NCBI GenBank assembly: GCA_963776545.1
Contig: CAVZND010000006.1
Coordinates: 13,565 to 77,564 of the forward strand
DNA from: an uncultured Chloroflexia bacterium
GTDB lineage: Bacteria > Chloroflexota > Limnocylindria > Limnocylindrales > CSP1-4
Reading direction: 5' to 3'
Length of the DNA stretch: 64,000 nucleotides
This document shows positions 2,023-59,294 of the stretch, piece by piece. The notes beneath the pieces were generated by a model. It was not told where the DNA came from and made no database searches. It saw only the letters and a list, made by a program, of their open reading frames with translations. Numbering within the stretch: position 1 is the first letter of the stretch; every line of letters starts with the position of its first letter. Made by a program: the position numbers and the translations under genes.

Positions 2023-3164
2023 CGGTCTGCCTCGCTGAGCTCGACGTCGGCCGCGACCGCATCCGGTCCGAGGTCCTCGGCCGCGTGCAGCTCGCGCCGC
2101 CGACGTCTCGACGGGAAGAGCCCCTCGGGTCGGAACAGCATCATGAACACCAGGGCCAGGCCGTACAGCAGGAACTGGTACTGGACGAAGTTGATGTCCT
2201 TCAGGATCGGCACGCCGACCGCGGCGAAGAAGGCGTTCAGCTGTTTCAGGAAGACCACCTGGATGGTGTAGATCACGAAGGCGCCGAGCGCCACGCCCCA
2301 GATGTTGCCCAGGCCACCGAGCACGATCATCGCGAGGATCGAGAACGAGACGTTCGAGCCGAACTGGTCCGGGCTGACGAGGGTCAGCTTGGAGGCGTTG
2401 AAGACGCCGGCGAGTCCGGCCGTCGATGCGCCGAGGGCGAACGCGAGCAGCTTGGTCGTGACCGTGTTGAGGCCGCTCGCCGCGGCCGCGAGCTCGTCCT
2501 CACGGATCGCCATCCACGACCGCCCGATCCGGGAATCCTGGAGCCGGTAGATGAGCATCATCGTGATCGTGATGATCACGGCCATCAGTATGTAGAACGG
2601 CCAGGGATTCAGGAGCGAGAACTCCACGAACGGCAGTTCCGGCTTGTAGAGACCGCCGATGCCGTTGGTGCCTTCCGTGTACTCCTCGGCGTTAAGGAAC
2701 ACGATGGGGACGATCTCGCCGAAGCCGAGGGTCACGATCGCGAGGTAGTCGCCCCGGAGTCGCAGCGTCGGTGCCCCGAGCAGCACGCCGAACGAGGCGG
2801 CGACCAGCGCACCGATGATCAGCATCAACAGGAACGGAGCGTGCTGGCCCGAGTAGGGCGAGGCGCCGTAGGCGTAGGTGTACGCGCCGATCGCGAAGAA
2901 CGCGGCGTAGCCGAGGTCGAGCAGGCCGGCCATGCCGACCACGATGTTGAGGCCCAGCGCCAGCAGGACGAAGACCCCCGCATTCGAGAAGCCAAAGAGC
3001 CAGACGTCCTGCTTCTGGAACGCGTTGAACGGCGGCAACAGTGCCAGGATCGGCAGGATCGCGGTCACCGCGATCATCACGATCAGGATCGTCAGGGACC
3101 GGTGGTTGTCGGTGAAGGCGCCGACCCGCTGGCGCCAGGGAGTCGGCATCTGTCGGGCGGTCAT
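2019..3164 (-). CDS. livM: branched-chain amino acid ABC transporter permease LivM
   Basis: 381 aa polytopic membrane protein of LivM type. 4-nt overlaps with livG and livH. Confidence 0.85.
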   Translation of the reverse strand: MTARQMPTPWRQRVGAFTDNHRSLTILIVMIAVTAILPILALLPPFNAFQKQDVWLFGFSNAGVFVLLALGLNIVVGMAGLLDLGYAAFFAIGAYTYAYGASPYSGQHAPFLLMLIIGALVAASFGVLLGAPTLRLRGDYLAIVTLGFGEIVPIVFLNAEEYTEGTNGIGGLYKPELPFVEFSLLNPWPFYILMAVIITITMMLIYRLQDSRIGRSWMAIREDELAAAASGLNTVTTKLLAFALGASTAGLAGVFNASKLTLVSPDQFGSNVSFSILAMIVLGGLGNIWGVALGAFVIYTIQVVFLKQLNAFFAAVGVPILKDINFVQYQFLLYGLALVFMMLFRPEGLFPSRRRRRELHAAEDLGPDAVAADVELSEADR

Positions 3165-4237
3165 GCTCGTTCACCGATCTGCTGGCCGAGGATGCCTGCG
3201 GGCCGGAACACGAGGACGAGGATCAGCACGACGAACACGATGGCCTGCGACCAGCGCTGTTGCCCGTTGGCCGCCGCAAAGACCTCGACGAACGCGATCA
3301 GGAAACCGCCGAGCACGGCGCCGGCCAGGTTGCCGATGCCGCCGAGGACGGCGGCCGTGAACGCCTTCAGCCCGGCGTTGAAGCCGAGGTCGAACCGGAC
3401 GAAGCCGAAGTACTGCCCCTGGAAGACGCCGGCCGCGCCGGCCAGCGCGCCGCCGATCAGGAACGTCATCGCGATCGTCTGGTTCAGGTCCACGCCCATC
3501 AGCTGGGCGGCCTGCTGGTCCTGGGCCGTCGCCCGCATGGCCCGTCCCAGTCGCGTCCGGCCGACGAACAGCTGGAGCACGTACATCAGGATCAGCGCCA
3601 CGACCACGATGAAGATGTTCAGGACACCGACGTTGGCACCGAAGATCCCGACCTTGGTCGGCGGGAAGAGCTGCGGAACCAGGCGATCGCCCGTGCCGAC
3701 GATGATCTGCATGACGTTCTGCAGGATCAGCGAGACGCCGATGGCCGTGATGAGCGGCGCCACCCTCGGCGCGTGGCGGAGCGGTCGATAGGCGAAACGC
3801 TCGATCGTGACGTTGATCAGCCCCATGACCGTCATCCCGAAGAGGAACGCCGCGACCATGACGAGCCCCAGCACGAGCGGTTCCTCGATCGGGCCCCTCA
3901 GGTGCAGGCCCAGGAAGTCGAGGGGCTCGGGGAACGAGGAGAGGAAGAACAGCGACATGAACGTGCCGACCATGAACAAGTCGCCATGGGCGAAGTTGAT
4001 CAGCTCGATGATGCCGTAGACCATCGTGTAGCCGAGGGCGACGAGCGCGTAGATCGCGCCGAGGGTGAGGGCATTGGCGACCTGCTGGGCCGCGACGGGC
4101 CCTCCGCCCGTGACCATCGCGCTCAGGACGAGGTAATAGAGGACGATCCCGCCCAATGAGAAGACGACAAGCTTGAGGCGTGGGTCGAATCGACCCCGAT
4201 CACTCGGGCTCCCTGGTCGAGTCGCAGTAGCCGTCAC
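3161..4237 (-). CDS. livH: branched-chain amino acid ABC transporter permease LivH
   Basis: 358 aa, LivH-like (GYTMVYGIIELINFAHGD motif region), polytopic. Confidence 0.85.
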   Translation of the reverse strand: MTATATRPGSPSDRGRFDPRLKLVVFSLGGIVLYYLVLSAMVTGGGPVAAQQVANALTLGAIYALVALGYTMVYGIIELINFAHGDLFMVGTFMSLFFLSSFPEPLDFLGLHLRGPIEEPLVLGLVMVAAFLFGMTVMGLINVTIERFAYRPLRHAPRVAPLITAIGVSLILQNVMQIIVGTGDRLVPQLFPPTKVGIFGANVGVLNIFIVVVALILMYVLQLFVGRTRLGRAMRATAQDQQAAQLMGVDLNQTIAMTFLIGGALAGAAGVFQGQYFGFVRFDLGFNAGLKAFTAAVLGGIGNLAGAVLGGFLIAFVEVFAAANGQQRWSQAIVFVVLILVLVFRPAGILGQQIGERA

Positions 4238-38930: not shown

Positions 38931-40267
38931 ATGACTGACCTTGCGGGTGCCGCGCCCGACGTCGGCCTGAAGCCCGAAGGCGAGGCCTGTCGGTGCGACG
39001 CCTATTCGCGGCGACCGAGATCGACCTGCGCCTGTTCGGGATGCTCGTCGCGCTCTTCGGCATCTGGCTCGGCTTCGGCATCCTCACCGACGGCAAGATC
39101 CTCGCCCCGGCCAGCATGGTGACGCTCGGCGTCCAGACCACGGTCGTCGCGATCATGGCGACGGGCATGGTGCTCGTCATCGTGTCCCGGAACATCGACC
39201 TGTCGGTCGGCTCGCAGGTCGGGGTCATCGCGATGACGTATGCCCTGCTCATGACCGACTGGCTGCCGAACCTGGGCATCGGCCTCGGCAGCCCGCTCAT
39301 GTGGATCCTCGCGCTCGCGCTCGGGATGTCGCTCGGCGTCGGGATCGGCGCGCTCCAGGGATTCATCATCGCCTACATCGGCGTCCCCTCGTTCATCGTG
39401 ACGCTGGGCGGACTGCTGTCGCTGCGCGGCACGGTCTGGCTCATGTCCAGCGGGGCCGCGGTCGCCGGCATCAACGACGTCTTCCAGCACCTGGCCGGTG
39501 GTGCGGCCGGGTCGATCGGCGGTACGGCCACCTGGGCGCTGGCCGCCCTCGGCTGCGGCGCCGTCGTCCTGCTTCTGGCATACAACCGGCGCCAGCGTCG
39601 TCGGTTCGGGTTCCCCGTCCGGCCGATGTGGGCCGAGGCCCTGCTCGCCGCTTCGGCGGCCTCGCGGTCCTGGGGCTCGCATTCATCGCCAATGCATACT
39701 ACTGGCCGCCCTCGCTGGCCGACGCCTACGCCGAGGCGAACGGCATCCCGATCCCGCCCGGCGGGCTCCAGATCTCGTCCGGCTTCCCGTGGCCGCTCAT
39801 CCTCCTCGTCGGCGTGACGATCGCCATGACCTTCCTCGCGACACGTCGCCGCTTCGGACGCTACGTCTACGCCTACGGCGGCAACCCGGACGCGGCCGAG
39901 CTGGCGTGGCATCAATACCCGCTGGACGATCATGAAGACGTACATGCTCATGGGTCTCCTGTGCGCCATCGCGGCGGCCGTCGCGTCGGCGCGGCTGAAC
40001 GGCGCCACGCTGGACGTCGGCCAGGACAACGAGCTGTACGTCATCGCCGCGGCGGTCGTCGGCGGCACCTCGTTCGCCGGCGGCATCGGCACGATCCCGG
40101 GCGCTGTCCTGGGCGCGTTCGTCATGCAGTCACTGTCGTACGGCCTGGCCTACATGAACGTGAATTCCCCCACCCAGAACGTCGTGGCCGGCATCGTCCT
40201 CATCGTCGCCGTCGGCTTCGACAGATCAATCGCCGTCGCGGCGGTGCGACAGGAGACGATGAGATGA
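38931..40267 (+). pseudogene. xylH: xylose ABC transporter permease XylH, two or three frameshifts
   Basis: Readable segments lie in three frames: [18 protein letters not shown]...[11 protein letters not shown]; then [18 protein letters not shown]...[11 protein letters not shown]; then [18 protein letters not shown]...IVAVGFD. Breaks are near 39646-39652 and 39904-39908. A third break is possible near 38985, linking the ATG at 38931 to the GTG-38993 frame. Confidence 0.8.
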
Positions 40268-41058
40268 CCCAGGTCGCGGCCGCGCCGCTCGTCGAGATTC
40301 AGGAACATCAACGTCGCCTTCGGTGGCGTGCACGCGGTGCGGACGTCTCGAATCGATCTCCATGCCGGGGAGGTCATGGGCGTCGTCGGCGGCAACGGCG
40401 CCGGCAAGTCGACCCTCATGCGCGTCCTGTCCGGAGCCCACCCGGCCGACTCGGGCGAGATCCGGTCGAAGGTCGCCGGTCTCGATCGACGAACCCGCGC
40501 GACGCGAAGAAGTTGAACATCGAGACGATCTACCAGACGCTCGCCTTGGCGGACAACGTCGACGCCCCGGCGAACGTGTTCCTGGGCCGGGAGATCACGA
40601 CTCACGCTTTGGCAACCTCGACGACGGGGCGATGGAGGACGCGACGCGCAAGGTCATGGGACGCCTCAACCCGAACTTCACGAAGTTCACGTCCCCGGTG
40701 AAGTCGCTGTCCGGCGGCCAGCGCCAGGCCGTCGCCATCGCCCGCGCCGTCCATTTCAACGCCAAGATCCTCATCATGGACGAGCCGACGGCAGCGCTCG
40801 GACCGGCCGAGACGGCGCAGGTTCGCGACCTGATCCGCCAACTCAAGCACGAAGGCATCGGCATCTTCCTCATCAGCCACGACATCCACGACGTGTTCGA
40901 CTTGTCCGACCGGATCAGCGTCATGTACCACGGGCAGGTCGTTGGCACCGTCAACAAGGACGAGGTCACCCCGGACGACGTGCTCGGCATGATCATCCTC
41001 GGCAAGAAGCCCGAAGAGGCGACCGAGATCGACAAGGCGGCCATCGAGACTGCGCTAG
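40264..41058 (+). pseudogene. xylG: xylose/ribose-type ABC transporter ATP-binding protein XylG-like, at least three and probably five frameshifts
   Basis: ATG at 40264 (ATGA with the xylH stop). Segments: [13 protein letters not shown] / [12 protein letters not shown]...[16 protein letters not shown] / [20 protein letters not shown]...FLGREIT / FGNLDD...[15 protein letters not shown]...[11 protein letters not shown]. Breaks are near 40302, 40450-40490 and 40606-40610. The 3' end is uncertain. Confidence 0.75.
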
Positions 41059-41091
41059 GTCGGGGCTGCGCACCGCGCGGCGTGCTGCCCG

Positions 41092-42576
41092 TCACATGCG
41101 CCGGAACGACGGCGCCAGCGCGGGGTACAGCTCTCGATACACGCCGTGGGCGGTCGCGTAACGCGGTGTGTCCGGCCCGGATCCGCAACCGGCGTCGCGC
41201 TGACGAGCGCGCCGGTCGCAGCCTCGACGCTCAGGAACCAGCCGGCCCCGACGGCCGCGAGCAACCCCGCGCCGTAGGCGGCGCCCTCCGTCGTGTCGAC
41301 GGTGGCGATCTCCGCGCCCAGCACGTCGGCGAGGATCTGACGCCAGAGCGGGCTCGCCGTTCCGCCGCCTGACGCCCGGATCTGAGCCGGCGCCGGCATG
41401 CCGGTCGCGAGCATAAGGTCGAGACCGTCGCGCAGCCCGAAGGCCACCCCTTCGAGGACCGCCCGGGTCATGTGGCGGCGATCGTGGCCGAGACCCAGCC
41501 CGACGAACGCGCCGCGGGCCTGAGGATCCGGGTGTGGGCTCCGCTCGCCGGTCAGATAGGGCAGGAAGAGGAGGCCCTCGCTGCCGGCGGGGACCTCGCC
41601 CGCCGCCGCGACCAGGTCGTCGAACGGTACGCCCGGCGCCAGGGCGTCGCGGAACCAGCGCAGGCTGCCGGCCGCCGACAGCATCACCGACATCAGGTGC
41701 CAGCGTCCCGGCACGGCATGGCAGAACGCGTGGACGATGCCACGTGGTTCGTGGATGGGTCGGTCGGTCGCCGCGAACACGACGCCCGAGGTCCCGAGCG
41801 AGAGGGCCATGCTCCCGGGGTCGACGACCCCGACCCCGACGGCGTTGGCGGCCTGGTCGCCGCCGCCCGCGACGACGGGCGTGCCGGCTCGAAGGCCCGT
41901 GGCCGCGGCGGCCTCTGCGCTGACGACCCCCGTGGTCTCGGGACCCTCGAAGGTCGGGGGCATCCAGGCGCGCTCGATCTCGAGGGCGGCAAGCACCTCG
42001 GGCGACCAGTCGCGGGCGGCCAGGTCGAACAGGATCGTCCCGGCGCCGTCGGCCTTGTCCATCGCATGCCCGCCGGTGAGCCGGAGCCGGACGTAGTCCT
42101 TCGGCAGCAGCACGTGCGCGACGCGTTTCCAGACGTCCGGTTCGTGGTCGCGGACCCAGACCAGCTTGGGGGCCGTGAACCCGGTCAAGGCGTCGTTGCC
42201 GGTGATCGCGATGAGCCGCTCAGCGCCGACCGCGGCACGGATCGCGTCGCACTCGGCGGCCGTGCGCTGGTCGTTCCAGAGGATCGCCGGTCGCAGGACC
42301 GCATCGCTGCGGTCGAGGAGGACGAGGCCGTGCATCTGACCGGTCAGACCGATCGCGACCACGTCCGTCCCGGCCACTCCGGTCGTCGCCAGGACCGATC
42401 GGATCGAGGCGACCGCGCCGTCCCACCACAGGCCGGGCGACTGCTCGCTCCAGCCCGGCTCCGGGATCTCGAAGTCCGTACTCGGAGACGCCGACACCGC
42501 GGACCGCGCCGGCGTCGTCGATCAGGACGGCCTTGGTCGCGGTGGTCGACGCGTCGATGCCGATGACGTGCGCCAT
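41092..42576 (-). pseudogene. xylB: xylulokinase XylB, two frameshifts
   Basis: ATG at 42576 lies 4 nt after the xylA stop and gives MAHVIGIDASTTATKAVLIDD...SEY. The frame changes near 42474-42480 to DFEIPEPGWSEQSPGLWW...(FGGY kinase body). It changes again near 41172-41180 to [27 protein letters not shown] with a stop at 41092. Confidence 0.8.
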
Positions 42577-42580
42577 CGAC

Positions 42581-43945
42581 TCAGCGCTCGGTGCCGACCT
42601 TCGCGCGCGTCGCCCCGGCCGCCCAGACCGACCGGTTGACGATGTTCTCGAGAAGCTCCTGCTGGCCGGAGACGCGTCGTGGGACGATCTCCCCGGCCGC
42701 GACCTTCGACTCGAGCGACTCGAGGGTCTCCGAGCCGTCCAGGATCGCGGTGCCGAGAGGTCCGTCCCAGCCGGCATACCGCTCGACCTTGAGCTTCGCG
42801 AGGTCGCGGCGTTCGACGAGGTCCGCCGCGACCAGAAGGGCCTGGGCCAGCGTGTCGAGGGCGCCGATGTGGGCGTGGAACAGGTCGTTCCTGTGGGTGC
42901 TCTGGCGACGCAGCTTGGCGTCGAAATTGAAGCCGCCCGGCGCGATCCCGCCGTTGAGCAGGATCTCGAACAGCGGCAGGGCGAGGTCCTCCACCGAGTT
43001 CGGGAACTGGTCGGTGTCCCAGCCGTTCTGCGGGTCGCCTCGGTTGGCGTCGATGCTGCCGAGGACCCCGGAGGCGATGGCGGTTGCCACCTCGTGGTGG
43101 AAGCTGTGACCGGCGAGCGTCGCGTGGTTCGCCTCGATGTTCAGCCGGTACTCGCCCTCGAGCCCGTGGCGGACGAGGAAGCCGTCGACCGTCGCGACGT
43201 CATAGTCGTACTGGTGCTTGGTGGGCTCCATCGGCTTTGGTTCGATGAGCAACTGGCCCCGGAAGCCGATGCGCTGCTTGTGCTCGGCGACGAGGTGGAG
43301 GAAGCGCGCCAGCTGGTCGCCCTCGCGGCGGAGGTCCGTGTTCAGCAGCGTGTCATAACCCTCGCGGCCGCCCCACAGGACGTAGTTCTCGCCACCGAGC
43401 CGCTCGGTGACCTCGAGCATGTGCTTGACCTGTGCCGCGGCGAAGGCGAACACCTCGGGATCGGGGTTCGTGGCCGCGCCCGCCTGGTAGCGCGGATGGG
43501 TGAACAGGTTGGCGGTGCCCCACAACAGCCGCACGCCGGTCCGCTCCTGGTAGCCGGCCGCGTCGTCGGCCAGCGCACCCAGGTTCGACCGGAATTCCGC
43601 GTACGTCGAGCCCTCGGGCGCCACGTCGCGGTCGTGGAAGCAGTAGTAAGGGATGCCGATCTTGGTGAAGAACTCGAAGGCGACCGCCATCTTGGTACGC
43701 GCTGCCACCATCTGGTCGCCGCTGCCGTCGAGCCAGGGACGGTCCATGGTCCCGACCCCGAACATGTCCACGCCGGGCCAGGAGAACGAGTGCCAGAAAC
43801 AGACACCCGGCCGGAGGTGGTCCTCCATGCGCTTCCCCAGCACAAGACGGTCGGGCTCGTAGACCTTGAACGAGAGTGGGTCCGTCGATTCGAGACCGCC
43901 GAAGGGGATCGGCCCCGTCACGTCCGGAAAGAAGTCATCGACCAC
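42581..43945 (-). CDS. xylA: xylose isomerase (long, class II type)
   Basis: 454 aa, intact. Contains [32 protein letters not shown] and DANRGD. Confidence 0.92.
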
Positions 43946-54224: not shown

Positions 54225-54494
54225 ATGGCTACGCGGAAGCAATCGGTCGCGGACGTGATGACGAGCAACCCGATCGTCGTCTCGGTGAACGCCTCCCTCG
54301 AGGAAGCCGATCAGCTGCTCCGCTCGACCTTCATCATGGGCCTCCCGGTCGTCGATGACCGCGGCACGCTGGTGGGCGTCATCAGCCACACCGACCTGAC
54401 GGCGTACCGCTTCGTCGAGCGGTCGCGTCAGATCCGTTCGAAGGCCATCGCCACGGACCCGCCGCCGCCGAGGCAGAGGGTCGCGAGGCCGTAG
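54225..54494 (+). CDS. single-CBS-motif protein (possibly a truncated Bateman protein)
   Basis: GGAGG lies 9 nt before the ATG at 54225. There is one CBS motif, VADVMTSNPIVV...GLPVVDDRGTLVGVISHTDL. The last ~22 codons overlap the convergent thiolase 3' end. Confidence 0.5.
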   Translation: MATRKQSVADVMTSNPIVVSVNASLEEADQLLRSTFIMGLPVVDDRGTLVGVISHTDLTAYRFVERSRQIRSKAIATDPPPPRQRVARP

Positions 54495-55669
54495 CGTCCC
54501 TCGCGCCGCTGGAGCTCGTACAGCAGCGTCGCGACGATCCGGGCCCCGGACGCACCGATCGGGTGGCCGAGGGCGATGGCGCCACCGTTGACGTTCACCT
54601 TGTCCCAGTCGAAGCCGAGCTCGGTCCCATCGGCCAGCGTCTGGGCGGCGAACGCCTCGTTGATCTCGATGAGGTCGAATGCCTCGATCGGCATCTCGAT
54701 CCGGTCGAGCAGTCGGCGGACGCCCTGGACGGGGGCCAGGAACAGCCACTTGGGTTCGACCTCGGCCTGGGCGTAGCCGACGATCCTGGCCAGCGGCTTC
54801 AGGCCGTATCGCTCGACCGTCCGCTCGCTCGCGACGACGGTCGCCGCGGCGCCGTCCGTGATGCCGGGTGCGTTGCCGGCGGTGACGGTGCCCTCCGTTG
54901 CGCCGCCACGGTCCTCGCCGGCGGGTAGGTCGAAGACCGGCTTGAGGCGAGCCAGGGCCTCGATGGTCGAATCCCGCCGGGGCCCTTCGTCCACGGCCAC
55001 GACGGTCTCGCGCCCCTTCGCATCGCGCAAGGTGACCGGCGCGATCTCGGGCTCGAAACGACCTTCGTCGATCGCCTCGATCGCGCGCACGTGGCTGCGC
55101 AGGGCGAATTCGTCCTGCGCCTGACGGCTGATCGTGTTGGAGATCGCGACGCGTTCGGCATGCGTGCCCATGTGGCACCCCTCGACGGCGCACCACAGGC
55201 CATCCTGGACGGTGGCGTCGACGAGCGTCCCGTTGCCCAGGCGGTAGCCGAAGCGGGCCTTGGGCAGGAGGTACGGCGCGCCGTTCATGCTCTCCATCCC
55301 GCCCGCGACGACGACGTCGGCGTCACCGGCCCGGATCTCCGCCGCCCCGAGCATGATCGCCTTGAGCGCGGAGCCGCAGACCCGGTTGATGGTCGTGGCA
55401 CTCGTCGTGACCGGGAGGCCGCCCCGAAGGGCCGCCTGGCGGGCAGGAGCCTGTCCGACGCCGGCCTGGAGCACCTGGCCCATGAGGACCTCGTCGATGG
55501 TCGCCTCGGTCGGGAGCCCGCTCCGCTCGACCGCCGCCCGGATGGCGACACCACCGAGCTCGACCGCGGGCACGTCCGCGAGCGCGCCGCCGAACTTGCC
55601 GATCGGCGTCCTGGCGGCGCTGACGAGATAGACGCCGCCGTTGCGGCCGGTCTGCGTCGTGTCTTCCAC
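54428..55669 (-). CDS. phaA: acetyl-CoA C-acetyltransferase (thiolase II)
   Basis: 413 aa. Contains ARTPIGKFGG, the active-site region NRVCGSALKA, NEAFAAQ, GGAIALGHPIGASG and CLGGGG. Confidence 0.9.
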   Translation of the reverse strand: MEDTTQTGRNGGVYLVSAARTPIGKFGGALADVPAVELGGVAIRAAVERSGLPTEATIDEVLMGQVLQAGVGQAPARQAALRGGLPVTTSATTINRVCGSALKAIMLGAAEIRAGDADVVVAGGMESMNGAPYLLPKARFGYRLGNGTLVDATVQDGLWCAVEGCHMGTHAERVAISNTISRQAQDEFALRSHVRAIEAIDEGRFEPEIAPVTLRDAKGRETVVAVDEGPRRDSTIEALARLKPVFDLPAGEDRGGATEGTVTAGNAPGITDGAAATVVASERTVERYGLKPLARIVGYAQAEVEPKWLFLAPVQGVRRLLDRIEMPIEAFDLIEINEAFAAQTLADGTELGFDWDKVNVNGGAIALGHPIGASGARIVATLLYELQRREGRYGLATLCLGGGGSVAMAFERI

Positions 55670-55729
55670 AGTGGTTCTCCTCGCTCGTTGCGTGTCCCTG
55701 GTCGTCCGGCCCCCAGCGGAGTCCCCGAC

Positions 55730-56473
55730 CTAGGTGTATAGGCCGCCGTTGATCTCGATCGCCTGGCCGGTGAGGTAGTCGCCGTGCGCGACAAGGAACA
55801 CGACCATCTGCGCGATCTCCTCCGGGCGCCCGAAGCGACCCATCGGGATCTTCGCCAGGATCGTGGCCCGAACCTCCTCCGGCATCGCCGCGATCATCTC
55901 CGTCTCGATGAAGCCGGGCGCGATCGCATTGACCGTGATGCCCTTGCGGGCCACCTCGAGTGCCGCGGACTTGGTGAAGCCGACGATCCCCGCCTTGGCC
56001 GCCGCATAGTTGGCCTGGCCGAAGTTGCCGTGCAGGCCGATCACCGAGCTGATGTTGATGATCCGGCCGTAGCTGGCGGCGACCATGTGCGGAAGCACGC
56101 GGGACGTCAGCTGGAAGACACTCGTGAGGTTGGTCTGCAGGACGGCGTCCCACTCCTGGGCCGTCATCTTCGCGAGCGAGCGGTCGCGGGTGATCCCCGC
56201 GTTGTTCACGAGCACGTCGATCTTCCCGAAGCGCTCGACGACGGCGGCGACCGCCGGCTCGATGGCCTCCGGGTCACCGACATCGAAACCCAACGCGAAC
56301 GAATCGCCACCGAAGGGCGCGATCTCGGTGACGACGGCTTCCGCCGCGTCCTTGTTGTTGGCATAGCCGACGGCCACGGACGCTCCGAGCCGCCCGAGCT
56401 CGAGCGCGATCGCCCGGCCGATGCCACGCGATCCGCCTGTGACGAGGCACGCCTTGCCTGACAGCTCAGCCAT
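55730..56473 (-). CDS. phaB: acetoacetyl-CoA reductase / 3-oxoacyl-ACP reductase (SDR)
   Basis: 247 aa from the ATG at 56473 (AGGAGGG SD). Contains TGGSRGIGRA, NNAG and YAAAKAG. Confidence 0.85.
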   Translation of the reverse strand: MAELSGKACLVTGGSRGIGRAIALELGRLGASVAVGYANNKDAAEAVVTEIAPFGGDSFALGFDVGDPEAIEPAVAAVVERFGKIDVLVNNAGITRDRSLAKMTAQEWDAVLQTNLTSVFQLTSRVLPHMVAASYGRIINISSVIGLHGNFGQANYAAAKAGIVGFTKSAALEVARKGITVNAIAPGFIETEMIAAMPEEVRATILAKIPMGRFGRPEEIAQMVVFLVAHGDYLTGQAIEINGGLYT

Positions 56474-56555: not shown

Positions 56556-56954
56556 TCAGCGCTTCGTGGGTTCGGTCGCCTTCGTGGCCATCTTCACCGT
56601 GGTCTGCCAGCTCTCAAGGGTCGCCTTCTGCGTCCGCTTGACGAGCTCGCTGAACTGCGCGACGGCCTCTCGATTGCTCTTCACGCCGAGGTCGAACATC
56701 CCCAGTCCGGCATCGATGGCCGCGTTCTGCGCTTCGAACGCCGTCTTGAGGATCGACTCGCTCTGGACGGACCAGGTGCCGAGCAGATCGCGGCTGATGA
56801 CACTGGTGTCGTCCGCGAAGGTCCGCGCGGCCTCGATCGATGCCTTCGCGGTCTCGGTCCCGTTGCGGGCTGCCTGTGCGGCGATGCGGGTCGCTTCGGC
56901 GACGGCCGCGGCTGCGGACTCAGGCATCTCGTTGGTGGTTGTGGTGGTGGACAT
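56556..56954 (-). CDS. phasin-family PHA-granule-associated protein
   Basis: 132 aa from the ATG at 56954 (AAGGAGG SD). It is an Ala/Glu/Thr/Lys-rich helical protein lying between the pha genes. The assignment rests on composition and context. Confidence 0.6.
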   Translation of the reverse strand: MSTTTTTNEMPESAAAAVAEATRIAAQAARNGTETAKASIEAARTFADDTSVISRDLLGTWSVQSESILKTAFEAQNAAIDAGLGMFDLGVKSNREAVAQFSELVKRTQKATLESWQTTVKMATKATEPTKR

Positions 56955-57083: not shown

Positions 57084-57641
57084 ATGCCAGATCGCCAGAC
57101 CGCGTCCGAACGCCGCTCCGCACCTGATCCGTCGTTGGACGGGCGGCGGGCCCGAGGTCGCCGCACGGATCCGCGTGATCCAGATCGGCGCGCCGCCAGC
57201 GATGGCCGCGACACGCGACCCGAGGGTGCGGACGAGCCGGCGGAAGAGCCTGAGGCGCTCTTCGGCTGGCCGCCACGCGACTTCCTCGCCCCGTTCGTCC
57301 TGCTGGCGGTGTCGATGCAGCGATCGCACGGGTATGTGATCGAGGACTACCTGCGCGCGCTCGGCCTGTTCGGGATCACCATGAGCACGCTGTACCGGAC
57401 CCTTCGCCAGATGGAGAAGGACGGCTTCCTCGAATCGACCTGGGAGCCGGGGCCGACCGGTCCCGCCCGCAGGGTGTACACGATCACCGATGCGGGCCAC
57501 GTCTGGCTGGACTCTTCGGCAGCGATGCTCAACGCCTATCGCGAGACCATCGATCGGTTCTTCGGTCTGTATGGCGCCGGCCCGCGTGCGAACCGCGACC
57601 GCCGCGCTGACTCGAAGGCCGAGAAGGAGACGCCGCTATGA
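57084..57641 (+). CDS. PadR-family transcriptional regulator
   Basis: Contains LLAVSMQRSHGYVIEDYL...STLYRTLRQMEKDGFLESTWE...RRVYTITDAG. The start is uncertain (57009 or 57084). Confidence 0.8.
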   Translation: MPDRQTASERRSAPDPSLDGRRARGRRTDPRDPDRRAASDGRDTRPEGADEPAEEPEALFGWPPRDFLAPFVLLAVSMQRSHGYVIEDYLRALGLFGITMSTLYRTLRQMEKDGFLESTWEPGPTGPARRVYTITDAGHVWLDSSAAMLNAYRETIDRFFGLYGAGPRANRDRRADSKAEKETPL

Positions 57642-58227
57642 CCAAGACCAAGGAAACGGGCCAGGCCGTCGATCCGTTCGAGACGTGGCGCCAGCTGTAC
57701 GACGCCAACGAGCGCGCATGGACCACGGCCATCGGCGAGGCCATGGACAGCCCGGAATTCGCCGATTCCAGCGGGAAGATGCTCGAGACGATGCTCGCCG
57801 CCCAGAAGGCGGTCCGCGAGAACATGCGCACCTACCTCGAGACGATGAACGTGCCGACGCGGGAGGACATCGCCCGCCTCGGCGAGCTCATCGTGGGGTT
57901 GGAGGAGAAGGTCGACCAGGTGGTCGACCGGCTCGATGATCTCGAGGCTGCCGTTCGCGCCGTGCCCGCCGGCGCCACGGGCCCAGCCGGGCCGGCTGGG
58001 CAGACCGGGCGCGTGGGACCCGCCGGGACGCGTGGGCCAGTGGGGAAGGCCGGCCCGCAGGGGCGGCCAGGCCCCAGGGCCGGCCAGGTCCCCAGGGCAA
58101 ACGAGGGCTCCAGGGTCCGGCCGCTCGGGTCAAGCCCGCCGGGACGCCCCGTGTACCGGGTCGCGCCGTGGCCGCCCGAGCCCCGAAGCCCATCGCGGGC
58201 CCGAAGCCTGAAGGCGGCGCTCGATGA
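57638..58227 (+). pseudogene. phaE: PHA synthase subunit PhaE/PhaR-like protein with a collagen-like Gly-X-Y tract; apparent 1-nt frameshift in a C4 run
   Basis: The N-terminal part DPFETWRQLYD...ETMNVPTREDIARLGELIVGLEEKVDQVVDRLDDLE is PhaE-like. Gly-X-Y triplets start at 57971. The frame breaks at CCCC 58072-58075. The shifted frame continues Gly-X-Y and ends at TGA 58225-58227, overlapping the phaC ATG (ATGA). Confidence 0.7.
57971..58122 (+). repeat. collagen-like (Gly-X-Y)n coding tract, about 17 triplets across the frameshift
   Basis: GAT GPA GPA GQT GRV GPA GTR GPV GKA GPQ GRP GP(Q) | GRP GPQ GKR GLQ GPA, read directly from the DNA. Confidence 0.8.
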
Positions 58228-59294
58228 CCACGATGCCACCCCCGATCCCGCCGGACGCCGCGAGTGTCTGGTTCTCGAACGATCGAGCCCTGGAGATGGC
58301 GCGAGCCGTCCTCGGCTCGATCGACGCGCAGGTCGGTCTCACCCCGAAGGAGCTGGTCTGGCGCAAGAACAAGGCGCGCCTCTACCGCTATGTCCGGTCC
58401 GAGCCCGCGACCCACCGGACGCCGATCTTCCTCGTCCTCCCGCTGATCAACCGCTCGTACATCCTCGACCTGCGCCCCGGCGCCAGCTTCGTCGGGTTCC
58501 TCCTGAACGAGGGCTTTGACGTCTTCCTCATCGACTGGGGCACGCCGGCTGACGAGGACCAGGGGCTCGACGTGACCGCGCTGGTGACCCGCTATCTGCC
58601 ACGGGCCGCGAAGGCCATCCAGCGGACCACCGGCGCGGACCAGATGACCGTCCTGGGCTACTGCATCGGCGGGACCCTCGCCGCCTGTTTCGCGGCCCTC
58701 CATCCCGAGGTCACCCGCAATCTCGTGCTGCTGACGGCTCCGATCGACTTCTCGGATGCCGGTCAGTTCGGTCGCATGACGGCGCGCGGCAGCTTCCCGG
58801 TCGAGCAGCTGACCGACACCTACCCGACCGTGCCGTCCCAGTTCCCAGACATCGGCACGAAGATGCTCAACCCGGTGGCCAACTACGTGGGTACCTACCG
58901 GCAGCTCTGGAACAAGCTCGCCGACCCCGAGTTCGACGTCCGCGGCTGGCAGGCGATGTACCGCTGGGTGAATGACAGCGTCCCGTTCGCTGGGGCCGCG
59001 TTCCGCCAATGGATCGTCGAGTTCTACCAGGAGAATCGCCTGGCTCGGAACATGCTCGACATGGACGGCCGGCGCGTCCGCCTGGCCGACATCCGCTGCC
59101 CGGTCCTCAACATCGCCGCGAGCCGGGATCAGATCGCCCCGCGCACGACCACGAGCGTCGTCACGAGCCGTGTCAGCAGCGACGACGCTTCGGAGATCCT
59201 CGTCGAGGGCGGGCACGTCGGGATCGTCGTCGGTCGCCGGGCCAGCCAGGATCTCTGGCCGCACGTCGGTGCCTGGCTCGCCGCGCACGACTGA
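58224..59294 (+). CDS. phaC: class III poly(R)-hydroxyalkanoate synthase PhaC
   Basis: 356 aa, alpha/beta hydrolase with lipase box GYCIGG. The size and the preceding phaE fit class III. Confidence 0.9.
   Translation: MTTMPPPIPPDAASVWFSNDRALEMARAVLGSIDAQVGLTPKELVWRKNKARLYRYVRSEPATHRTPIFLVLPLINRSYILDLRPGASFVGFLLNEGFDVFLIDWGTPADEDQGLDVTALVTRYLPRAAKAIQRTTGADQMTVLGYCIGGTLAACFAALHPEVTRNLVLLTAPIDFSDAGQFGRMTARGSFPVEQLTDTYPTVPSQFPDIGTKMLNPVANYVGTYRQLWNKLADPEFDVRGWQAMYRWVNDSVPFAGAAFRQWIVEFYQENRLARNMLDMDGRRVRLADIRCPVLNIAASRDQIAPRTTTSVVTSRVSSDDASEILVEGGHVGIVVGRRASQDLWPHVGAWLAAHD

Follow-up and report, generated by a model that had tools for sequence, protein, structure and literature searches.

The window analysed here, 64,000 nucleotides of contig CAVZND010000006.1 from an uncultured Chloroflexia bacterium of soil, contains at position 57638 of its forward strand the start of a predicted gene, here called phaR, for the partner subunit of a polyhydroxyalkanoate (PHA) synthase. 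A helical domain is followed in this gene by a collagen-like tract of Gly-X-Y triplets, and within the tract the reading frame as written is lost in a run of four cytosines. The explanation which best accounts for all observations together, and which we consider likely, is a collagen-tailed PhaR subunit encoded in a single frame, with the four cytosines being an error of the consensus sequence and with a putative function of the tail as rod and tether. The true product is predicted to be one protein of 196 amino acids, composed of a PhaR-like three-helix domain, 17 Gly-X-Y triplets, and a basic tail of 34 residues rich in alanine, proline, lysine, and arginine. Its parts are the following.

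57638..57970, + strand: PhaR/PhaE-like N-terminal domain, residues 1–111, three helices (TIGR02132, PF09712, AlphaFold2 (AF2) model)
57869..57964, + strand: heptad-repeat coiled-coil part of helix 3, residues 78–109, directly 5' of the first Gly-X-Y (10 of 10 a/d positions hydrophobic)
57971..58075, + strand: Gly-X-Y part 1, 11 triplets and GP, in frame with the start codon at 57638 (translation)
58055..58071, + strand: 17 nucleotides without counterpart in relative L013, an extra QGRPGP unit (18 nucleotides in relative L014) minus one base (alignments)
58072..58075, + strand: run of four cytosines where the frame is lost, five in the intact L014 (sequence, alignment)
58075..58122, + strand: Gly-X-Y part 2, Q and five triplets in the -1 frame (translation; identical to the L014 product)
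58123..58227, + strand: basic tail of 34 residues rich in Ala, Pro, Lys, and Arg, and TGA overlapping the phaC start (translation)

Reading frame of the gene and its relatives

According to the list of open reading frames (ORFs) and its translation, the frame opened at 57638 runs to 58519 and yields 293 amino acids. Following the helical N-terminal part, residues 112–146 of this written ORF (57971–58075) read GAT GPA GPA GQT GRV GPA GTR GPV GKA GPQ GRP GP, and the frame is then lost at CCCC (58072–58075). Translation in the -1 frame from 58075 continues with Q GRP GPQ GKR GLQ GPA, proceeds through the 34-residue basic tail and ends at a TGA (58225–58227), which shares the tetranucleotide ATGA (58224–58227) with the phaC start codon at 58224. 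The written frame stays open for 292 nucleotides past this TGA, to 58519 within phaC. Joining the two frames gives a product of 196 amino acids with 17 uninterrupted Gly-X-Y triplets. This joined product lies above the gathering threshold of the Pfam family Collagen (PF01391; 36.5 bits versus 27.2), while the 293-residue ORF falls below it (25.2 bits). The threshold of PF09712 (PHA_synth_III_E), 25.7 bits, is exceeded by both the joined product (30.5) and the written ORF (29.3). The claim of an earlier reading made from the letters of the window (the sequence-only reading) that a PHA synthase subunit carries a true collagen-like tract is thus borne out by the repaired product, which passes both thresholds.

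Which frame is the real one is shown by two close relatives, the metagenome contig L013, with 99.45% identity to the window along 6.6 kb, and L014 from a neighbouring species, with 94.6% identity. The alignment of L013 and the window contains one indel only, 17 nucleotides which the window alone possesses, and the phaR of L013, which is without the 18-nucleotide unit, is intact with 190 amino acids. In L014 the extra unit measures 18 nucleotides, with CCCCC opposite the CCCC of the window, and phaR is likewise intact, forming an ORF of 196 amino acids (3001–3591) whose stop codon makes up ATGA with the phaC start. Beginning at the first Gly-X-Y, its translation differs from the predicted product of the window in only three residues and is identical across the break. 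Compared with the unit next to it, the extra unit in the window is changed only at three third codon positions, all of them synonymous. The substitutions after the break with respect to L014 comprise six synonymous changes and one non-synonymous change when read in the repaired frame; in the written frame none of the seven is synonymous. The intact genes of L013 and L014 together with this pattern of substitutions indicate that the repaired frame is under selection and that the window is short of one cytosine of a run of five. The proposal that the frame ending on the phaC start codon is the real one, and that a single extra C restores it, has therefore been confirmed down to the exact predicted length of 196 residues. 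An artefact of the assembler as the source of the 17-nucleotide insert was also considered and was rejected, since L014 has the unit in frame with 16 of 18 bases identical.

Domain, collagen-like tract and proposed function

The best family for residues 10–105 is TIGR02132 (phaR_Bmeg, E 8.3e-24), which is matched at model positions 6–101 of 189, that is in its first half alone, with a score of 84.6 bits below the equivalog cutoff of 148.4. The class III PhaE model TIGR01834 is matched more weakly (E 7.7e-9, 35.5 bits versus a cutoff of 154.95) and only at positions 230–322 of 324. These profile matches make the gene product a divergent partner subunit of the PhaR/PhaE type, nearer to PhaR, in a PHA synthase that has two components and resembles classes IV and III. 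The label PhaE-like given to it previously therefore holds for a partner subunit in general and fails for PhaE proper. With class III PhaE it shares a score above the PF09712 threshold and the coupling to a PhaC of class III type. It departs from PhaE in that only about the last 87 of the 311 profile positions of PF09712 are matched (222–308) and in that PhaE is much longer, with Pfam and TIGR profiles of 311 and 324 positions compared to the 196 amino acids found here. As in class IV PhaR of Bacillus/Priestia megaterium, the gene for the small subunit stands directly upstream of a class III/IV-type PhaC of about 40 kDa. Unlike class IV PhaR, the C-terminal half is replaced by the collagen-like tract and basic tail, and the host belongs to the Chloroflexota (Limnocylindria) and not to the Bacillota. 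The AF2 monomer model has helices at residues 13–36, 41–69, and 75–108 with a predicted local distance difference test (pLDDT) score of 66–85. A profile search of the PDB returned collagens and BclA only, all through the tract, and no solved structure for the N-terminal domain.

Among 5.8 billion proteins searched, 713 matches were obtained, the best 120 of which were used for the statistics of the tract. Most of these 120 carry both PF01391 and PF09712, and the two families are already named together in some Joint Genome Institute (JGI) annotations. Almost without exception the tract starts at residue 112, and it runs without interruption for 5–23 triplets with a median of 18, in a sample biased to the length of the query; among species-level loci 7–29 triplets were counted. 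In the aligned columns of the tract glycine is invariant or nearly so. The X positions are occupied by proline (46%), arginine (24%), and alanine (17%) and the Y positions mainly by alanine, threonine, valine, and lysine. The tails contain 28% alanine and 13% each of proline, lysine, and threonine, with a mean net charge of +6. The heptad pattern at residues 78–109, with 10 of 10 a/d positions hydrophobic, is kept in all 120 proteins, has beta-branched residues at several d positions and ends three residues before the tract. Its recurrence in hundreds of homologues, with glycine near-invariant, shows the tract to be real and conserved and not a product of chance. Gly-X-Y periodicity had been named as something to be sought in homologues, and its presence there makes clear that the tract is not peculiar to this assembly.

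In a tree of PhaC from 55 loci the tract marks a clade of 43 rows, and basal lineages are without the stalk. Some loci bear the labels Verrucomicrobiia, Solirubrobacterales, Acidimicrobiales, or Anaerolineaceae; four of them were placed on the tree, where they nest in Limnocylindria, and these deviating labels are probably mislabelled bins. With this exception the tract appears to be confined to Limnocylindria. In two separate groups of the tree, within or beside the tract clade, a tandem helical segment of 24–29 residues replaces the tract, with a repeat length of 24 residues in the group nested in that clade. This segment resembles the end of helix 3, as in RSRPAEVAKIDRIAKRLDTIERAV, which is present in three copies. 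The relatives of this type are the following.

L045, L049, L054, L055 (about 3300–3600) and L047, L048, L050: coiled-coil repeats in two to three copies, basic tail kept

A few lineages have lost the tract and possess the basic tail only. A search with the N-terminal domain gave 742 cluster representatives; the C-termini of the distant relatives among them are mostly coiled-coil or basic and lack Gly-X-Y. Collagen-bearing proteins collapse at 50% clustering, and at least five triplets were seen in 2 of 150 listed representatives, both seemingly frame-damaged. Also found among the 50% cluster representatives are out-of-frame readings of phaR or false fusions with neighbours (included in P0127, P0134, P0138, P0143, P0150, and P0154), so that assembly errors have seeded spurious protein clusters in the databases.

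Uninterrupted Gly-X-Y without hydroxyproline, standing beside a helical domain which is a putative trimerisation module, is also found in Scl1 and Scl2 of Streptococcus, BclA of Bacillus, and Lcl of Legionella. Profile matches to the Scl1/2, Lcl, and BclA families span the tract only and reach 37–48 bits versus cutoffs of 325–500. Scl1/Scl2, BclA, and Lcl are secreted to the cell surface or spore coat and possess signal peptides or anchors. The phaR product is unlike them in its hydrophilic N-terminus, its membership in a cytoplasmic enzyme complex, and its short tract of 17 triplets; no hydrophobic signal region is seen in the N-terminus MTKTKETGQAVDPFE as read from the translation. A second likeness exists to PhaM of Cupriavidus necator and PhaF of Pseudomonas putida, in which a granule- or synthase-binding part is combined with a basic C-terminal tail rich in alanine, proline, and lysine. 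The histone-like tails of PhaM and PhaF attach PHA granules to the nucleoid (PMC9049629). Sequence homology between the phaR product and PhaM or PhaF was not detected, and PhaM and PhaF are without a collagen-like segment.

From these comparisons a function can be proposed. Like PhaR and PhaE, the N-terminal domain would bind PhaC and activate it. Oligomerisation of the coiled coil, probably to a trimer, would set the register of a collagen-like triple helix, which would form a rod about 15 nm long (51 residues of 0.286 nm each). The basic tails at the end of the rod would bind a polyanion, most likely the nucleoid, in the manner of the histone-like tails of PhaM and PhaF. In this way the subunit might gather several synthase molecules together and keep a fixed spacing between the nascent granule and the DNA, so that one small protein would merge the role of PhaR in synthase activation with that of PhaM and PhaF in granule-nucleoid attachment. 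Related lineages may reach a like geometry with tandem coiled-coil repeats. A trimerising stalk as an organiser of granules had been suggested by the sequence-only reading, and the conservation of the tract and its exchange for coiled coils make this suggestion more plausible. Taken as a whole, the proposal of a cytoplasmic collagen-like rod which trimerises PhaR and tethers synthase or granule to the nucleoid is tentative, plausible enough to be pursued yet short of being probable. Three observations speak against it: the match of the coiled coil to the Pfam family Trimer_CC is weak (17.4 bits, under the threshold of 27 bits), the AF2 monomer model gives the tract a pLDDT of about 33 and no confident structure, and the tail of the window, unlike those of PhaM and PhaF, contains neither PAKKA nor AAKP repeats and has more arginine and proline.

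The same lack of structure in the monomer model would fit a Gly-X-Y tract that is a flexible, positively charged, disordered linker or a coat of the granule surface, arisen by repeat expansion and neither forming a triple helix nor trimerising the protein. The DNA of the tract is indeed a tandem repeat of 17–18 nucleotides, some relatives lack any tract, and 15–18 triplets without hydroxyproline are short for a stable collagen helix. A mere linker, however, hardly explains why glycine at every third position is unbroken over 5–23 triplets in 120 homologues while X and Y diverge, why proline occupies so many of the X positions, and why a conserved heptad coiled coil always precedes the tract at a distance of three residues. 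Moreover, where the tract has been substituted, the substitute is another rod-forming element in the form of tandem coiled-coil repeats. We therefore regard a disordered linker as unlikely, though it deserves to be kept in mind beside the rod and tether.

Origin of the frame break

The frameshift is most likely an artefact of long-read, Nanopore-type metagenome assembly, by which one base was dropped from the consensus within a G+C-rich 18-nucleotide repeat that varies in copy number between strains. The source genome is a metagenome-assembled genome (MAG) of 22 contigs with a completeness of 85.6%. Its nearest relatives, with few exceptions, are Microflora Danica MAGs of the Chloroflexota, class Candidatus Limnocylindria. 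The Microflora Danica MAGs are Nanopore-only Flye assemblies, polished in a single Medaka round meant to lower the number of indels (PMC12313526). When the loci bearing the tract are grouped, with the Nanopore class being assigned by the style of the contig names, phaR is frame-broken in 7 of 25 Nanopore-named loci and in none of 10 short-read loci, a contrast which is suggestive only (Fisher p = 0.08). The broken genes are those of L018, L023, L034, L044, L056, L057, and L062. In L018 and L057 the frame is left and then regained, and L023 reads as a fusion of PhaR, collagen-like tract, and PhaC of 544 amino acids, probably a frameshift artefact of this Nanopore MAG.

The whole source genome was scanned with a codon-position hidden Markov model, which counts places at which the coding phase shifts although the previous frame is still open. 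The genome contains 258 such places, or 8.2 per 100 kb, with 14 per 100 kb in the contig of the window; the controls, three genomes from the same genus that are more fragmented and hence presumably short-read assemblies, gave 3.9 per 100 kb, a background so high that the result is used only as a roughly two-fold excess. In a random sample of strong candidates from the scan, four of eight proved by their Pfam coordinates to be single genes split between frames. These four genes, the profile coordinates of which continue across the break, lie outside the window.

C1:341953: glyA (serine hydroxymethyltransferase (SHMT) profile positions 2–72 and 80–376)
C8:14728: priA
C19:54655: chorismate-binding enzyme (TrpE/PabB type)
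C3:92560: beta-lactamase-family gene

It is improbable that housekeeping genes such as glyA and priA are truly broken, which points to errors of the consensus. Within the window the sugar ATP-binding cassette (ABC) transporter genes at 38931–42600 are seemingly shattered between frames. The stop-to-stop ORFs of this region match only positions 171–269 of 269 of BPD_transp_2 and 80–137 of 137 of ABC_tran, and a partial check of the xylH/xylG region found partial domains only.

Besides the modest Fisher p value and the high background of the scan, several points weigh against a consensus error. Runs of four or five cytosines are short homopolymers, which are usually read accurately in current Nanopore chemistry. 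The 6.6 kb shared with L013 contain no further indel, and the local error rate is thus not extreme. Neither the exact 196-residue nor the exact 293-residue sequence is present in a collection of 15 billion proteins, and two exact-pattern scans of metagenome contigs for the junction, with four or five cytosines allowed, found no match.

The absence of any other indel with respect to L013 could also mean that the one-base deletion is real in the strain and that phaR is a recent pseudogene or a truncated allele. The product would then lose the last five triplets and the basic tail, gain about 147 out-of-frame residues, and forfeit the coupling to phaC. The repeat, which differs in copy number between L013 and L014, is a plausible mutational hot spot, and the sugar-utilisation genes of the window with their partial domains could reflect true decay. 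Against a decaying strain stand the frame breaks in housekeeping glyA and priA in the same assembly, the intact state of the flanking phaA, phaB, phaQ, and phaC with a PhaC 100% identical to that of L013, and the occurrence of broken phaR in Nanopore-named relatives only. A real deletion is for these reasons rated improbable.

A functional role of the cytosine run, either as a site of programmed -1 ribosomal frameshifting or as a phase-variable homopolymer toggling tail and phaC coupling, is very improbable and was rejected because the slippery site and the two-frame layout are not conserved in relatives. For slippage a tRNA-Pro in the P site would slip on CCCC before the rare codon AGG; perfect re-pairing on C CCC would be possible after the -1 slip, AGG is indeed the next zero-frame codon, and the end of the -1 frame falls exactly at the phaC start codon. 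However, L014 with its five cytosines, L013 without the unit, and four 190-residue cluster members are single-frame, as are 10 of 10 short-read loci with the tract, and a canonical X XXY YYZ heptamer is missing. Known phase-variable homopolymers are far longer than four to five bases. Among the meanings which the sequence-only reading had offered for the run, the sequencing error gains support from the broken housekeeping genes, and phase variation and -1 slippage are not supported by the comparison with single-frame relatives.

The PHA locus and meaning of the collagen-tailed PhaR

The surroundings of phaR make up, by gene content and order, a complete PHA locus, in which a plus-strand operon lies beside the divergent phaA, phaB, and a gene at the position of a phasin.

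54428..55669, - strand: phaA-type acetoacetyl-CoA thiolase (Pfam Thiolase_N 8.5e-89, Thiolase_C 2.1e-44)
55730..56473, - strand: phaB-type short-chain dehydrogenase, acetoacetyl-CoA reductase-like (adh_short 9.3e-64; end mapped from the 247-residue gene of L013)
56556..56954 (longer ORF to 57014), - strand: ORF of 132–152 amino acids at the phasin position, between phaB and the divergent phaQ (132-residue gene call in L013)
57255..57641, + strand: gene for a PadR-family, PhaQ-like repressor (PF03551 PadR 1.5e-16; start mapped from L013)
58224..59294, + strand: phaC, catalytic subunit of a class III/IV-type PHA synthase, 356 amino acids, GYCIGG lipase box (TIGR01836, PhaC_N, Abhydrolase_1)

The best family of the PadR gene is TIGR02719 (repress_PhaQ, 1.4e-22, under the curated cutoff), the polyhydroxybutyrate (PHB)-responsive repressor PhaQ. 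Its TGA overlaps the ATG of phaR in another ATGA (57638–57641), and by these two ATGA overlaps phaQ, phaR, and phaC are chained to what is predicted to be a translationally coupled phaQ-phaR-phaC operon. AAGGAG occurs 8 nucleotides upstream of the 57638–57641 junction. PhaC itself matches TIGR01836 with 6.9e-97 and 324.6 bits (cutoff 365.3). In nearly all of 62 related loci with downstream DNA, phaR is co-oriented with and adjoins a class III/IV-type phaC. The presence of a PhaQ-like PadR repressor is a further likeness to the class IV PhaR locus, from which the operon differs in that phaB does not stand between phaR and phaC. B. megaterium carries phaQ and a phaRBC operon (PMC9049629). The ORF at the phasin position is conserved in L013 and has no match in Pfam or NCBIfam; its position suggests that it may act as a phasin. 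A 12-nucleotide in-frame length difference to L014 is located at 57234 of the window in a region rich in arginine and aspartate upstream of the PadR domain, and several small indels occur in the spacer between phaA and phaB (55701–55715).

The literature search found no paper linking collagen-like repeats to PhaE, PhaR, or PHA synthase and none linking PHA to Limnocylindria. The collagen-tailed PhaR is a real, conserved, and apparently undescribed variant. One practical consequence concerns the genomes themselves: Nanopore-only MAGs often break this G+C-rich repeat, giving rise to spurious long, fused, or truncated gene calls some of which have become cluster representatives, and the frameshift found here should not be taken as biology without the reads.

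If the proposed rod exists it would be an intracellular, enzyme-attached collagen triple helix of bacteria, the families compared here (Scl1/2, Lcl, and BclA) all being surface or spore proteins. It would also provide a new organisation of PHA granules by clustering of the synthase and by spacing from the nucleoid. The natural exchange of collagen-like rod, coiled-coil repeats, and no rod at all in one lineage constitutes a ready comparative experiment, the parts of which are small and easily expressed.

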